The position numbers were made by a program, and so were the translations under genes. The notes below the pieces were generated by a model that saw nothing but the letters and a program-made list of their open reading frames with translations, ran no database searches and was not told where the DNA came from. From the NCBI GenBank assembly GCA_963828465.1, contig CAWHEU010000018.1, positions 288,001 through 352,000 of the forward strand: 64,000 bases of DNA, read 5' to 3'. The DNA comes from an uncultured Acidobacteriota bacterium. Lineage in GTDB: Bacteria > Actinomycetota > Acidimicrobiia > Spongiisociales > ZC4RG35. Shown one piece after another: positions 41,948-46,827 of this stretch (position 1 is its first letter; every line of letters starts with the position of its first letter).

Positions 41948-43561
41948 TCAGCCCTCTTCCATGAGGAGGTCGGCGTATTCGTTCCTCACGACCTTCTTGT
42001 CGAACTTGCCAGTGCCTGTCTTGGGAATCTGGTCGATGAACAGGATCTTGTCGGGCAGCCACCACTTGGCGACCCGCTCCTCGAGGAAGGAATGCAAATC
42101 CTCCTCCGACACCTCGACGCCTTCACGGAGAACGACGAAGGCCACCGGGCGCTCCTGCCATTTGACGTGCTTCAGGCCAACGACGGTTGCCTCGCTCACG
42201 TCGGGGTGGGCCATGAGCGCATTCTCCAGATCGATCGATGAGATCCACTCCCCACCCGACTTGATCACGTCCTTGGCGCGGTCGGTGATCTTGATGTAGC
42301 CCTCGGGCGTGATCTTGCAGACGTCGCCGGTGCGGAGCCACCCGTCCTCGAACGACTGGGCGGAGCGGCTGTCCTGGTAGTACTCGGCGGCGATCCAGGG
42401 GCCGCGGATCAACAGCTCACCGAACGCCTCTCCATCGTGGGGCAGCTCCTCACCGATCTCGTCCACGATCTTGACCTGGAGCCCGGCCACCGGGATGCCT
42501 GCCGTCTCGAGGAAGTCGAGTTGCCGGTCGAGGTCCCACTCCTCCATCTCGGGCTTGAGGAGGCTGGTCGAGGCGACCGGGTTGGTCTCGGTCATGCCCC
42601 AGCCCTGCACGACCCGGATTCCCTGGACCTTCCAGTACCACTCGATCATCGCCCTTGGAACTGCCGATCCCCCGCACAGGAAAGCGCGGATCGAAGAGAG
42701 GTCGACATCCGGGTTCGCTTCGAGATACTGCTTGATCCCCAACCAAACCGTGGGCACACCGGCGCTGAATGTCACCTTCTCCTGCTCGAGCAGGGGGACG
42801 AGACCCTGTGGGGTCAAGTCGGGACCGGGATAGGTGAGTTTGGCCCCCTGAGTGACGGCCATGAAGGGGTACCCCCAGGCGGCAGCATGGAACATCGGCA
42901 CAACCGGCAGGACGTTGTCGCTCGGGAGCATGTTGAAGTTGGCCAAGTTGGAGATCGTGTGCAGGTATGTGGATCGCTGCGTGTAGGCGACCCCTTTCGG
43001 GTTGCCCGTCGTTCCCGACGAGTAACAGAACATCATCGGGGACCGCTCGTCGAGCTGGGGCCAGGGTCCGTGAGGCTCGGCGTCCCCGATCAGGTCCTCG
43101 TAGGCGATCGATCCCGGGATCGCATCCGAGGCCGACTCCCCCATGACGACGAAGGTCTCCACCGTCTTCAGCTCCGGTGTGATCGGTCCCAGGAGCGGAG
43201 CTAGATCGGGGTCGACGAACAGCACCTTGTCCCCGGCGTGGTTGATGATGTAGGCGATCTGATCGGCGAAGAGCCTGATGTTGACGGTGTGGCAGACGAG
43301 CCCGGTATTGGCGGTGGCCCAATAGAGCTCGTGATGGCGGCGGTTGTTCCAGGCAAAGGTGCCCACCGGGTCGCCCTGCGAGAGACCCAGGGCCTCGAAG
43401 GCGGTGGCGAGTCGTCTCACCCTGGTGTCGGTCTCGCCGTAGGTGGTGCGGGTCACCGACCGATCGGCCTCGACGGAGACGATCTCCTGGTCCGGGTAGA
43501 GCCAGACCGCCCGGTCGTAGAGGGTGGAGAGGTTCAGCGGGAAGTCCTGCATGTGTGGCAT
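41948..43561 (-). CDS. Medium/long-chain fatty acid--CoA ligase (AlkK/DmdB-like)
   Basis: YSSGTTGNPKG, GWGMTET, WLRTGD, DVIKSGGEWISS, GKFDKK. Confidence 0.93.
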   Translation of the reverse strand: MPHMQDFPLNLSTLYDRAVWLYPDQEIVSVEADRSVTRTTYGETDTRVRRLATAFEALGLSQGDPVGTFAWNNRRHHELYWATANTGLVCHTVNIRLFADQIAYIINHAGDKVLFVDPDLAPLLGPITPELKTVETFVVMGESASDAIPGSIAYEDLIGDAEPHGPWPQLDERSPMMFCYSSGTTGNPKGVAYTQRSTYLHTISNLANFNMLPSDNVLPVVPMFHAAAWGYPFMAVTQGAKLTYPGPDLTPQGLVPLLEQEKVTFSAGVPTVWLGIKQYLEANPDVDLSSIRAFLCGGSAVPRAMIEWYWKVQGIRVVQGWGMTETNPVASTSLLKPEMEEWDLDRQLDFLETAGIPVAGLQVKIVDEIGEELPHDGEAFGELLIRGPWIAAEYYQDSRSAQSFEDGWLRTGDVCKITPEGYIKITDRAKDVIKSGGEWISSIDLENALMAHPDVSEATVVGLKHVKWQERPVAFVVLREGVEVSEEDLHSFLEERVAKWWLPDKILFIDQIPKTGTGKFDKKVVRNEYADLLMEEG

Positions 43562-44172
43562 CAGGCGCCTCCGATCAGCTTCTGCTTCTCTGCCTCGAAC
43601 TCGACATCGCTCAGCTTGCCTTCGTCGTGGAGCCGAGACAGTGTGGCGAGCTGGGAAGCGGAGCTTTCTGCCGCCGCCGCCCGTCCCCCTGATTGCAAGG
43701 AGTGCTGGCGATCCTCCCTCGCCTGATAGATCAGCGACTGGATCGCCTCTGGATCGGGAATATCGGTGTAGTGGGTTTGCCCGTGGGTCCCGGCCGACTC
43801 GATGAGGAGATCACCGGTCCCGAAAATCCGCTCCCATGCCGATTGCTGAAACGCCACGTCGTTGATCACCTCGAGCGGGAGCTCTTTGCCCTGTTTGGAA
43901 AGGAGGCCCACGCGGTGGATCAGGCGCTCAGTCGTAATGACGTGCAGCGTGGTGAACCAGCGGATGAACCCTCTCGCCGTCAGCACGAGCCACAGGATGA
44001 TGAGGGCGCCGATCACCCACAGAGCCCAATCGAATCCCTGGAACGCGAGGAACACGATGACTGCGAGGGCGAGGATGGAGAGAATGGCTTCCTTGAGGAT
44101 CCCGGACCAGTGAGGTCTGAATTCGGCCTTGATCTCCTCGCCCGGGCTGAGCAGTTTCTCTGGATACGCCAT
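43561..44172 (-). CDS. Membrane protein with bacterial PH domain (bPH_2) and C-terminal SHOCT domain
   Basis: 2 TM helices, ITTERLIHRVG, ERIFGTGDLLIESAG, LSRLHDEGKLSDVEFEAEKQKL. Confidence 0.88.
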   Translation of the reverse strand: MAYPEKLLSPGEEIKAEFRPHWSGILKEAILSILALAVIVFLAFQGFDWALWVIGALIILWLVLTARGFIRWFTTLHVITTERLIHRVGLLSKQGKELPLEVINDVAFQQSAWERIFGTGDLLIESAGTHGQTHYTDIPDPEAIQSLIYQAREDRQHSLQSGGRAAAAESSASQLATLSRLHDEGKLSDVEFEAEKQKLIGGA

Positions 44173-44214
44173 GGCGGCAGGCTACCGATCAGGCCGTTTG
44201 GATGAGTCCCCACA

Positions 44215-44572
44215 CAACGAGAAAGTCCCGAGGGAGCCTTGGCCGAAGCCTCAACCCTCTCGGGACTCTCGCCCATCCGGTGTCAGGCCGGGGACCCAAC
44301 TCCGAATGGAGTTCTTGCCGATGGCCGAAGCCGCCGGCAGGTGTGCGATCCGAAGATCGCGACCTCCCCGTCTCCGGGAAGACCTTGCGAGTCGTGAGAC
44401 CCGCCGTTCGGTGACCGCTCGACGATCCCGAAGGATCCCCGTCCGGTCGTCCGACCGTCCCTGGGGCCCTCAGTTTCCCGGTGACTCCAGGTTCCCGCAC
44501 CACGGCCTCGGAGCGGCTCTCACCACTCCGAACCTCTTGATTCGGGCCGCCGCCGGGTTTCCCCTTCGGCGT
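44215..44572 (-). ncRNA. Unassigned highly structured RNA A (about 360 nt)
   Basis: Own promoter; about 10 helices closed by UUCG/GNRA tetraloops on the minus strand; long 3' hairpin shared with RNA B; no credible ORF. Confidence 0.75.
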
Positions 44573-44579
44573 GGGTGGA

Positions 44580-44608
44580 AACGTAGACCGGCACCATGGT
44601 GCTGGCAA
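44580..44608 (-). promoter_or_regulatory. Promoter TTGCCA-N17-TACGTT for RNA A, with an 18-bp dyad (44588-44605) in the spacer
   Basis: Reads TTGCCA gcaccatggtgccggtc TACGTT on the minus strand; first hairpin begins about 8 nt downstream. Confidence 0.7.
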
Positions 44609-44682
44609 CTCCAGGCACTGATTCTTTTTCGCGAGGTGATCAATAGTTTCCGCGGTGTCTGTCGGGGCTGGGGAAGACGCAC

Positions 44683-45771
44683 CTATCGGGGTCGTTTCAG
44701 TCTGACTCTGGAGACACCGAGGCGGATGATCTGAAGACCTTCACGGTGTACGGAGACATGATGGTGAAACCAGCACAGGGTGATCAGATTGTCCGCATCG
44801 GTCTTTCCACCGTGTGACCAGGGGATGACATGGTGGACTTGGAGCCGATAACTGAACGGGCAGCCTTCCACGGTGCATCCGCCGTCACGGTGGAGGACAT
44901 GACGTCTGAGTTTCCGGTCCACAGTCCTGGATCGGCGTCCCAAATCGAGCGGTTTGTGTTCGGCTCGACCGATCAGGTCCACATTCCCGTTACAGAGGAC
45001 CTCTGCGAGGGTGCCCGGTCCCAGTCTCGGACCGGCAAGGACGGAAACGCCCCGTTCGCCGCTGGTTTCCGCCGCTGTCGGGGCGTCGACGATCACTGCC
45101 AAATCGACCGGCGGGGACTCTTCGCCCGAAACGCTCTGATAGGGGGATTCTTCGCCCGAAACGCTCTGATAGAGGGAGTCCTGACAGATGGCGACCAGGG
45201 CCAAAGCCCGCCGTTCCGCCACTGCCAGACGTTGATCTCCCGGGACGATCTCATCGGCCCTCTGGTCGACCGCCTTCTCCATGATCCGGGCATCCAAACC
45301 GGGGAGCTCACCCCAAAACGATGTGGCCAGCTCATCGGAATGGCCGAAATGGACAAAACCATTCCCGGTTCTCCGTTCACGATTCCGGGTCAACCGCTTG
45401 TGATCAGCCACCAGACGACGCAACCCCGAAATGTCGTAACCCTCATGACCGGCACGGGATTCAGAGGGAAGCCGAGACAGCTGTTCCGCCCGATCAAAGG
45501 AGACCTCACCAGCCGCTAGCTGCTCGACCACATCGGGAGCCTCCGCCAGACGAGTTGCCGTCCAACACAGACTCCGGGCCGTCTCATGAGACACATCAGC
45601 ACGAGCCGCCATCCAATCAATGATCGACCGGCAACCATCAGCCAAATGAGACTTCCGGCGACGTTTCTCCGCCACCGCCGCCATCTGCAACAACCGGATC
45701 GTGGCGATCTCCCGCTCACCATCAGCAATCAACTGATCCAGTTGATCCTCGGAGTAACTCCCCAACTCCAT
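44683..45771 (-). CDS. DUF222 / 13E12-repeat-like HNH endonuclease
   Basis: RDGGCTVEGC..QVHHVIPWSHGGKTDADNLITLCWFHH; helical DUF222-like N-region; leaderless ATG at 45771. Confidence 0.88.
   Translation of the reverse strand: MELGSYSEDQLDQLIADGEREIATIRLLQMAAVAEKRRRKSHLADGCRSIIDWMAARADVSHETARSLCWTATRLAEAPDVVEQLAAGEVSFDRAEQLSRLPSESRAGHEGYDISGLRRLVADHKRLTRNRERRTGNGFVHFGHSDELATSFWGELPGLDARIMEKAVDQRADEIVPGDQRLAVAERRALALVAICQDSLYQSVSGEESPYQSVSGEESPPVDLAVIVDAPTAAETSGERGVSVLAGPRLGPGTLAEVLCNGNVDLIGRAEHKPLDLGRRSRTVDRKLRRHVLHRDGGCTVEGCPFSYRLQVHHVIPWSHGGKTDADNLITLCWFHHHVSVHREGLQIIRLGVSRVRLKRPR
45113..45172. repeat. 30-bp tandem duplication inside the HNH gene (YQSVSGEESP x2)
   Basis: GGGGA(C/T)TCTTCGCCCGAAACGCTCTGATAG twice, 1 mismatch, in frame. 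Confidence 0.9.
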
Positions 45772-45778
45772 ACCCGAC

Positions 45779-45801
45779 AACGTACGAGGAGGGCGTGACA
45801 A
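45779..45801 (-). promoter_or_regulatory. RecA-NDp/PafBC-type DNA-damage promoter TTGTCA-N11-TACGTT
   Basis: TTGTCAcgccctcctcgTACGTT, then 7 nt, then ATG of the HNH gene. Confidence 0.7.
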
Positions 45802-45944
45802 ATTTGCCCTTGGAAGAAGAAGATCTGAGTGAATTTCTCTAGAGAATTGCCCCCGCGATCAGTTGCGCCACGTAGCCCAGGTTGAAGTTCTTGGAGACTC
45901 AAGCCGGACCTTGCCCAGACCACTGAAATACCGGCCGAGGGTAA

Positions 45945-46095
45945 GACGCGAGAAACCCCGAGAAAGCTTTGGCCGAAGCCGAAGCCCTCTCGGGGCTCTC
46001 AGTGCCACTCGACCGGGAAAGCGGGCCCCCAGTCAGGTGGCGATCCGGAGGGGCCGAAGCCTCTCCTTCCCCGACCCGGGCGAACCCGTGTCGGT
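45945..46095 (-). ncRNA. Unassigned structured RNA B (about 150 nt, four hairpins)
   Basis: Own promoter; three UUCG-capped stems; 3' hairpin matches RNA A at 44 of 53 aligned positions with a compensatory change. Confidence 0.72.
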
Positions 46096-46102
46096 AAGCG
46101 GC

Positions 46103-46132
46103 AAAGTACGAGAACCCGACCTCACCCGTCAA
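46103..46132 (-). promoter_or_regulatory. Promoter TTGACG-N18-TACTTT for RNA B
   Basis: Near-consensus hexamers; +1 predicted at A 46095, the first base of hairpin 1. Confidence 0.7.
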
Positions 46133-46191
46133 GCCATACCGGAGCCTTGTTTTCGCGGCCTAGCCGATCTTTTCGCGTTTAGCCTTCGCCC

Positions 46192-46827
46192 ATGGCAACG
46201 GCCCGAAAGAGCGTGCCGACAGCATGGGTCGTGGTCTTCTTTCTCATCGCAGTCGTACTCGTCTTCGCCGTGATCCGGGTGACCATCGACAGCCAGAACA
46301 TCGCCAACGGAGTGATCCCGAACGAGGGCGAGTTCGATCGCCGTTATGCCCAGTATCCGATCCTGGCCTACGCCCACATCCTCCCCGGAGTCGTCTACCT
46401 GGTCCTTGCTCCATTCCAGGTCTCCCGCCGATTCCGCAATCGCCACCTCGACCTGCACCGAAAGATGGGCCGCTTCCTGGTGCCGATCGGAATCCTTTCT
46501 GGAGTGCTCGGAGTCATATTCGGCTTCTTCTTCTCCTTCGGCGGGTTCGCAGAGGCCAGTGCCGCTGTGGTGTTCGGCACCTGGTTCGTCATCGCCCTTG
46601 CCCTGGCCTACAGCTACATCCGAGCCGGCGACACCGTCCGCCACCGCCGATGGATGATCCGGGCCTTCGCCATCGGGCTCGGCGTCGGGACGATCAGGAT
46701 CTGGGTCGGGCTGTTCCAGGGATTCGGCCTATTCGACGAAGTCACTTCCTTCGGCGTGGCCTTCTGGTTGTCGTGGACCCTGCACGTGATCGCGGCCGAG
46801 ATCTGGCTGTGGCGACGGCCCACCTGA
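46192..46827 (+). CDS. DUF2306 family membrane protein
   Basis: AHILPG..LAPFQ, LHRKMGR, HRRWMIRAFA. Confidence 0.85.
   Translation: MATARKSVPTAWVVVFFLIAVVLVFAVIRVTIDSQNIANGVIPNEGEFDRRYAQYPILAYAHILPGVVYLVLAPFQVSRRFRNRHLDLHRKMGRFLVPIGILSGVLGVIFGFFFSFGGFAEASAAVVFGTWFVIALALAYSYIRAGDTVRHRRWMIRAFAIGLGVGTIRIWVGLFQGFGLFDEVTSFGVAFWLSWTLHVIAAEIWLWRRPT

Follow-up and report, generated by a model that had tools for sequence, protein, structure and literature searches.

A structured non-coding RNA outside the catalogued families, and two small sister genes, in soil Acidimicrobiia

Background

The Acidimicrobiia are common, mostly uncultured bacteria of soil and water for which we found no described regulatory RNAs, and our literature search turned up no report of an RNA like the one presented here in this class. 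This RNA, which we call RNA A, is encoded in a stretch of 64,000 nucleotides (the window; positions 288,001 to 352,000 of contig CAWHEU010000018.1, assembly GCA_963828465.1) from an uncultured soil member of this class. The assembly consists of 29 contigs, the genome is 92% complete, and RNA A lies on the contig labelled C18, in a 510-nt intergenic gap (44173-44682) between two minus-strand genes. On the upstream side a DUF222/HNH gene (44683-45801, minus strand) adjoins the RNA A promoter; downstream is a gene (43561-44172, minus strand) whose product is a membrane protein carrying a bacterial PH and a SHOCT domain, after which comes a gene for an AMP-binding acyl-CoA ligase. RNA A itself (44216-44572, minus strand, about 357 nt) is delimited by conservation, consensus folding and covariation as a row of ten hairpins (H1 to H9 and a 3' hairpin) joined by linkers of 1-12 nt. 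We are almost certain that it is a real non-coding RNA gene.

Findings

An initial annotation, made from the letters of the window alone, had proposed that the minus strand here encodes a multi-helix RNA of about 360 nt, and this is borne out by both the hairpin content and the folding energy of the region. A script that counts UUCG or GNRA loops closed by at least three pairs finds 10 such hairpins in 44216-44572 when the minus strand is read and a single one when the plus strand is read; the mean over dinucleotide shuffles is 1.45 (standard deviation 1.17, maximum 7), and none of 2000 reached 10. Two of the 10 fall inside the terminator stem, in its 5' arm, and probably do not form hairpins of their own. 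The minus strand of the 510-nt intergenic region folds at -255.8 kcal/mol (z -5.30), with none of 100 shuffles as good, versus -228.9 kcal/mol (z -1.67) and 8 of 100 shuffles as good for the plus strand.

The element is also well delimited by conservation. A DNA search of 41 genomes gave a match in 32, and the body of RNA A was matched in 22 of the 24 other genomes of the genus at 71-95% identity, the remaining two (61% and 78% complete) showing a match to the 3' hairpin only. One of the 22 (G018) is unpublished and was excluded from all later alignments, and three further unpublished genomes (G173, G189, G218) were counted in a tally of HAD-IB genes; no conclusion depends on any of them. In the 22 genomes the conserved block begins just past the -10 box and ends after the 3' hairpin, and conservation as a whole starts about 65 nt upstream of RNA A and ceases a few bases past this hairpin. 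From the position of the conserved promoter and the end of conservation we therefore predict a 5' end at A 44572, a 3' end at about 44216 and a length of 357 nt, in agreement with the ends at 44572 and 44215 that had been suggested beforehand.

The RNAalifold consensus of 19 sequences of the genus contains 111 pairs in ten local hairpins, with 98.3% of the alignment cells paired. Fifteen pairs are changed on both sides in the genus, compared with 7.6 +/- 1.7 in shuffled alignments (0 of 500 as high) and 2-6 in slid controls. At the family level, with 47 distinct sequences in an alignment that was fitted to our covariance model R1 and hence leans towards it, 20 of 30 pairs are changed on both sides, versus 12.5 +/- 1.6 in shuffles (0 of 500) and 3-11 in slid controls. 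Since covariation exceeds both the shuffled and the slid controls, it supports the gene and its structure; selection at the RNA level, as claimed in the initial annotation, is thereby confirmed for the genus and for the family, and the prospect that homologues would fail to covary is ruled out.

Ten individual hairpins had been listed at the outset, eight of which are present in the consensus supported by covariation: GGG-GAAA-CCC, GGAGUGGU-GAGA-GCCGCUCC, CGG-GAAA-CUG, GAUCC-UUCG-GGAUC, CCCG-GAGA-CGGG, GCGAUC-UUCG-GAUCGC and, twice, GGC-UUCG-GCC. The other two did not stand. A stem capped by GCAA is absent from the consensus, its letters forming the 3' arm of a different hairpin and a linker, and AACUCC-AUUC-GGAGUU competes with a longer hairpin of 39 nt with a CCC loop, H9 (44272-44310, minus strand), which is the one that has the compensatory changes. 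The outer pairs of H9 covary: one of them changes from A-U to G-C in 5 of the 19 sequences, and the same pair is G-C in 23 and A-U in 14 sequences family-wide. Its top, GGUC-CCC-GGCC (44296-44286), is invariant, the three uppermost pairs being identical in all 47 distinct sequences and the word GGTCCCC occurring in 58 of 58 homologues. A second invariant element is the tip of H4 (44420-44441, minus strand), CGGGGAUCCUUCGGGAUCGUCG, with a UUCG loop, a bulged G and flanking GA/GA mismatches, unchanged in 19 of 19 sequences of the genus. It is a single copy in the genome and is present in the homologues of the family; in the 58 homologues gathered by script its presence is by construction, the H4 tip having served as anchor for collecting them. 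The 3' hairpin (44216-44270, minus strand), a presumed terminator, has about 20 pairs and a UUCG tip and is followed by CUUUCUCGUU; in the genus alignment its 20 pairs are 99.7% paired and 15 of them never vary. No long-range pairs are supported in the consensus of the 19 sequences. One predicted long-range helix (alignment columns 92-95 with 394-397) proved to be an artefact, columns 92-95 pairing locally with 36-39, where two species show a C-G to U-A change.

RNA A is non-coding, as follows from the indels of 1 and 2 nt and the 88-nt deletion by which homologues differ, and from the fact that neither of the two open reading frames (ORFs) overlapping the RNA A gap belongs to a Pfam family. 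The deletion concerns two species (loci L016 and L019), whose RNA A is 88 nt shorter (270 nt) and lacks exactly H2 and H3. In four other species an additional UUCG hairpin separates H6 from H7. Homologues gathered by script, 58 of them distinct, range from 270 to 480 nt, with 8-15 hairpins, and their minimum free-energy folds contain 211 UUCG, 137 GAAA, 85 GAGA, 47 CCC and 21 GCAA loops. Four elements are fixed, namely the 5' hairpin, the H4 tip, the H9 top and the 3' hairpin, and the hairpins between them come and go. The word GGGAAAC occurs 114 times in 55 of the 58 homologues, with two or more copies in 40.

For a wider survey we used two models, R1 comprising hairpins H7-H9 and R2 comprising H9 and the 3' hairpin. 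Among 151 genomes of the order R1 has matches in 15: the window's own, 13 of the 19 other members of its family, and one of the 131 genomes that represent eleven further families; this sole outside match (G163 of family f9, 34 bits) lies in coding-like sequence and was dropped. R2 matches 35 of 151 genomes of the class including the window's own, all of them in the window's order and usually at two or three places close together in a genome. Leaving aside the window's genome, R2 is found in 14 of 15 genomes of family f1, 7 of 7 of f9, 4 of 5 of f2, 5 of 5 of f12, 1 of 1 of f5, 2 of 2 of f6 and 1 of 1 of f11, and among the 151 genomes it has no match in any family of another order.

RNA A matches no catalogued RNA family. 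None of the 4227 Rfam families reaches its gathering threshold over the window, and at E up to 10 the region 43900-44900 gives five matches at the level of chance, the best with 16.1 bits against a threshold of 80. ARAGORN finds nothing at RNA A, and RNase P RNA, transfer-messenger RNA (tmRNA) and signal recognition particle (SRP) RNA are each encoded above cut-off elsewhere in the genome. The initial view that the element is none of these three, nor a transfer RNA, was thus correct, and the comparison with Rfam that it called for has produced no confident match to a known family.

Homologues in the genus share the promoter as well as the RNA. The promoter of RNA A (44580-44608, minus strand) has a -35 box TTGCCA (44608-44603), a 17-nt spacer and a -10 box TACGTT (44585-44580), which we take to be of the actinobacterial TANNNT type. 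All 23 aligned sequences of the genus keep both boxes in register, the spacer varying, and the same layout is seen in other genera. Before the -35 box is a DNA motif (44626-44654, minus strand), conserved in genus and family homologues, with one exact copy, TCGCGAAAA, at 44634-44626 and one degenerate copy, CGCGGAAA, about 20 nt further up at 44654-44647.

The 3' hairpin and the upstream motif are not confined to RNA A. The hairpin recurs in the window at 45949-46000 and on another contig of the genome (C22, 129466-129513), each time ending a small gene whose promoter is laid out like that of RNA A. One of these genes, sRNA B (small RNA B; 45946-46095, minus strand, about 150 nt, with predicted ends), was recognised by its 3' hairpin (R2, 55.5 bits). 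Its promoter reads TTGACG (46132-46127), 18 nt, TACTTT (46108-46103) and is preceded by a double CGCGAAAA motif at 46150-46177; the gene is divergent from a DUF2306 membrane-protein gene (46192-46827, plus strand). The other, sRNA C (about 160 nt, plus strand, C22 at about 129362-129530, equivalent to about 560-730 of locus L112), is unlinked and was recognised by the promoter motif and the 3' hairpin; its body has hairpins capped by GCAA, GAGA and UUCG. The three genes thus present the features of a tandem family, with a common upstream CGCGAAAA motif, a common 3' hairpin and a small and a large gene in tandem.

The strict double motif, CGCGAARA-N10-16-CGCGAARA, occurs at three sites in this genome, upstream of sRNA B, of sRNA C and of dnaA, and 33 times in 17 of 21 genomes of the family, versus 2 for a backwards control. 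The third site (contig C20, 158216-158243, minus strand) lies about 245 nt upstream of an ORF that reads as dnaA (156502-157971), followed by dnaN, and words resembling DnaA boxes surround it. [quoted passage not shown] A compact promoter motif that is common to dnaA defines a testable regulon.

RNA A is present in RNA libraries. When words were sampled from a 2.4-kb query, six RNA runs contained 8-10% of them and DNA runs up to 57%; the DNA runs containing the stretch are mostly soil metagenomes. Contigs of at least 90% identity, placed from four RNA runs of four studies (495, 379, 189 and 20), lie on 44218-44563, and contigs from RNA libraries of three studies cover the sRNA B region 45948-46087; such contigs give neither strand, ends nor level, relatives are summed in them, and RNA libraries can contain DNA. 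Single contig records have word depths up to 21,898; together these data show that the RNA occurs in such libraries and are no measure of its abundance. The bins of the PH-domain gene (43900-44142) have no contig in the four RNA runs; for the HNH gene the bins are empty in runs X17 and X19, with depths of 0.15-6.3 in X15 and X18. Uncovered parts and depth ranks of contig data are not usable as evidence. Adapter-like letters that adjoin 44563 in X17 and X18, nine bases inside the predicted 5' end, are a hint of a fragment end and no more. The objection that there might be no transcript, foreseen in the initial annotation, is weakened, since four studies have contigs of it in their RNA libraries, but contigs fall short of proving transcription. 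For metatranscriptomics RNA A represents unannotated material that is conserved, found in soil RNA libraries and without a match in Rfam.

Discussion

We propose that RNA A is a separately transcribed, very stable RNA of soil Acidimicrobiia that would act in trans and through a bound protein, neither coding for anything nor working in cis. The most likely partner would be RNA polymerase, which RNA A might store or sequester according to the growth state, as Ms1 (with the polymerase core), CoRP and 6S RNA do elsewhere, and the CGCGAAAA promoter motif that is also found upstream of dnaA might couple its synthesis to the state of growth or replication. That RNA A is abundant, binds RNA polymerase and fills the niche of Ms1, CoRP and 6S is a tentative idea, drawn by analogy. 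It leads among our guesses on account of a published precedent (PMC11077062), of a class in which 6S, Ms1 and 6C are not detectable, and of a large and a small gene in tandem that parallel Ms1 and 6C. The precedent is that one abundant polymerase-associated RNA is reported per species, in three classes (6S, Ms1 and CoRP), and further classes are expected (PMC11077062). CoRP, about 516 nt long, has close homologues only within Corynebacterium, according to the same paper (PMC11077062). Like RNA A, it is lineage-restricted, long and structured, it is abundant as RNA A may be, its host lacks Ms1 and 6S, and it is described there as recognised only by its polymerase partner (PMC11077062), so that polymerase-binding RNAs need share no sequence. 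It differs in being located between tRNA genes and cleaved into two fragments, and RNA A was compared with it by description only.

The likeness to Ms1 (MTS2823, scr3559) deserves more attention, since the initial annotation had remarked that the size recalls Ms1 and that no sequence match was visible. Both RNAs belong to the same phylum, measure a few hundred nucleotides and occur in a lineage without detectable 6S; both would be single-gene units with a sigma-A-like promoter and a hairpin terminator, and each has a small sRNA alongside (the abundant 6C for Ms1, a possibly abundant sRNA B for RNA A). Ms1 is situated close to the origin of replication, with transcription directed at it; in the present assembly RNA A and dnaA fall on separate contigs, C18 and C20. 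In Actinomycetes, Ms1 is one gene away from the small 6C RNA (PMC6582537), and in the Ms1 survey the phrase 'PH domain-containing protein' is one of the flank descriptions by which Ms1 is found in genomes of the Cellulomonas type (PMC9130861). The term 'Acidimicrobi' does not occur in the list of 824 species of that survey (PMC9130861). Ms1 is defined by a HAD-IB neighbour, a chain of BLAST similarity, a rod with a central bubble and binding to the polymerase core (PMC9130861, PMC4191392), and the long hairpin with its central bubble is needed for the binding (PMC4191392).

Several results weigh against the polymerase reading, among them everything that we found on synteny, similarity and fold. 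Scanning the genes at about 37 to 55 kb of the window revealed no HAD-IB gene; the TIGR01490 HAD-IB gene of this genome is on another contig (C22, 585078-585677), where the flanking ORFs leave no intergenic room. None of 30 HAD-IB loci across the phylum has a match to the PH protein nearby, and R1 run without filters on 27 HAD-IB loci gives at best 18.2 bits (E 0.06). An Ms1 of the Streptomyces type (L113, 989-1217), found beside HAD-IB and 6C in the loci that we fetched, matches two congeners at 85-88% identity; compared by BLAST with RNA A regions at the settings of PMC9130861 it gives nothing (best overlap E = 7.1), which agrees with the absence of a sequence match remarked on at the outset. 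In 19 HAD-IB loci Rfam finds 6C beside the HAD-IB gene and no Ms1. In the PH-gene loci of Actinocrinis and Micrococcales (L100-L106), ORFs take up most of the sequence before the PH gene, so that these loci offer no bridge to Ms1. Finally, the Streptomyces Ms1 folds into a 5' hairpin and a long rod, whereas RNA A is a string of local hairpins rather than a rod with a central bubble. Because HAD-IB synteny, a sequence chain and the rod-with-bubble fold were each looked for and not found, membership of RNA A in the Ms1 family is not supported. Its binding to RNA polymerase is a separate matter and stays a proposal by analogy.

Other observations point the same way. A scan of 43900-46400 for E. 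coli-type consensus signals calls no promoters and, the U-tract of RNA A being too weak, no terminators, so that our promoter and terminator calls rest on conservation; we have noted above the ambiguity of contigs from RNA libraries. The modular hairpin string (8-15 hairpins, H2 and H3 missing in two species) fits a scaffold or sponge better than a promoter mimic. 6S RNA (RF00013) has no match in the window, in the genome or in 151 genomes of the class, in a search that detected 6S in 4-5 of 14 named genomes used as positive controls, and RNA A is limited to one order or family. As the absence of 6S extends further than the range of RNA A, the argument of a vacant niche does not single out RNA A, and a pattern of 6S presence complementary to that of RNA A could not be established because 6S went undetected in all 151 genomes. 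RNA A might occupy the niche of a polymerase-binding regulator like 6S, from which it differs in being twice as long and in having no rod-and-bubble fold. 6C, for its part, was not found in the genome. It is on account of the modular string and the narrow distribution that we regard the polymerase mechanism as no firmer than tentative and also give serious thought, as a somewhat doubtful possibility, to a different protein partner.

With such a partner, RNA A would be a scaffold or sponge whose H4 tip, H9 top and hairpins with GGGAAAC loops bind several copies of another RNA-binding protein. The modular and variable number of hairpins (8-15), the repetition of GGGAAAC and the invariance without covariation of the helix sequences at H4 and the H9 top all speak for this, as does the retention of the 3' hairpin sequence across seven families, in only one of which the R1 body is matched. 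Within the same explanation, and with similar doubt, the 3' hairpin common to sRNA B and sRNA C would be a handle for a chaperone or a protective factor. In enterobacteria the terminator is such a handle for Hfq. Neither CsrA (PF02599) nor Hfq is found in this genome at its 92% completeness, no candidate partner gene is linked to RNA A, and the repeats have little in common beyond the loop; moreover, UUCG and GNRA loops are closed structural caps and not typical protein-capture loops. The comparison with the CsrB/RsmZ sponges has the same two sides: these are also about 350 nt long with repeated hairpins of variable number, but there is no CsrA gene found here and the loops of RNA A are closed tetraloops rather than GGA capture loops. 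A base-pairing sRNA seems to us unlikely. In that case G-rich ribosome-binding sites of mRNAs would be the targets of the C-rich top of H9 (UCCCCG) or of some other exposed stretch, much as 6C and RoxS/RsaE use C-rich loops for such pairing, and sRNA B and sRNA C would be siblings under one transcription factor. The CCC loop and its closing pairs are indeed invariant in 47 of 47 distinct sequences, and three paralogous genes with a common promoter motif and terminator recall sibling sRNAs such as OmrA/B and PrrF1/2, which are tandem paralogues with a common upstream motif and terminator. However, three loop bases shut in by G-C pairs make a poor seed, the 357 nt are nearly all stable helix with linkers of 1-12 nt and little single strand, and OmrA/B and PrrF1/2 are short, base-pairing and Hfq-dependent, while RNA A is 270-480 nt long, almost fully helical and in a genome where no Hfq is found.

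Two further explanations fare less well. RNA A might act through its own three-dimensional fold, as a self-assembling 'ornate' RNA or a ribozyme with GNRA loops docking into helix receptors, which the very high density of GNRA loops (GAAA, GAGA and GCAA as counted above) and several invariant helix segments would suit; we consider it very improbable, in that whole hairpins come and go between genera, two of them missing in two species, which is hard to fit to one precise global fold, and in that no long-range pairs are supported. The idea that RNA A controls the PH-domain/acyl-CoA ligase operon in cis, as its leader or attenuator, or else belongs to the HNH/DUF222 mobile gene, appears largely refuted. 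It is favoured by the position of RNA A: among 70 PH-gene loci, R1 has a match at E < 1e-5 in 45, always on the same strand and upstream of the PH gene, within 300 nt in 28, at 400-800 nt in 3 and at 1.3 kb or more in 14. These last 14, with an unrelated hydrolase-cyclase gene standing between RNA A and the PH gene at one wide gap that was checked, argue against a leader. So do the conserved TAGCCT box that the PH gene has of its own, 6 nt before the ATG, and the same design of sRNA C at an unlinked place. The HNH gene abuts the RNA A promoter, but it is traceless in some genomes of the genus and decayed in others, all of which retain RNA A. A HEARO/omega-RNA of HNH (IscB) elements was likewise considered and rejected: the Rfam models, HEARO included, give no match, the neighbour is a DUF222-HNH protein, and the linkage is not obligate.

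If RNA A does bind RNA polymerase, it would join 6S, Ms1 and CoRP, and the function would have arisen again with a quite different architecture. If its partner is not the polymerase, the invariant hairpins and the common 3' hairpin would point to a new RNA-binding protein in a host without detected Hfq or CsrA. A bolder and frankly speculative view, which we would not press, is that RNA A and its siblings form a fourth class, unrelated in sequence, that binds RNA polymerase or another core machine within one order of Acidimicrobiia, with an expandable chain of hairpins around three fixed elements, a dedicated transcription-factor site, present at the dnaA promoter too, through which one regulator would set both sRNA output and the initiation of replication, and a 3' hairpin acting as a protein handle more than as a terminator.

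Neighbouring genes and further observations

The TAGCCT box lies at 44179-44184 (minus strand), and in another genus (L037) GGTAGCCTGC is retained at a similar distance from the ATG. This suggests that the mRNA of the PH-domain gene may be leaderless and transcribed from a promoter of its own within the 43 nt that follow RNA A.

The DUF222/HNH gene separates the 3' hairpin of sRNA B from the RNA A promoter, its position being exactly between the two. Relatives have copies at the same spot that are complete and 72-75% identical, cut down to 86 or 166 residues, or very divergent. In two genomes (G005 and G010) a second 3' hairpin stands about 77 nt ahead of the match to RNA A, too close to leave room for the gene, and these loci have no HNH match. 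The gene looks like a mobile one that landed beside the 3' hairpin and later decayed.

RNA A is also carried by loci from records titled 'uncultured Acidobacteriota' (L043-L048, L051, L076, L091), the sister records of which are titled Acidimicrobiia. The PH proteins of these loci are mostly 83-99% identical to the window's (71% in L076), and the titles are probably wrong.

Single TCGCGAAAA copies stand at C2:187590 and C26:90084, beside words similar to those around the dnaA site. At locus L111, two promoters following a TCGCGAAAA word have no Rfam match; here two promoter-like copies of TTGAC-N17-TA(T/A)AGT (515-610 and 1018-1100, or about 431210-431310 and 431715-431800 of C22) each precede the same hairpin, about 60 nt long (GAAGCCCCGACGGGUCGAAACUUCGGUU.CGACUUGUUGGGGCUUC). 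R2 weakly matches the first copy (31 bits), and downstream of the second is an ORF with a length of at least 393 aa.

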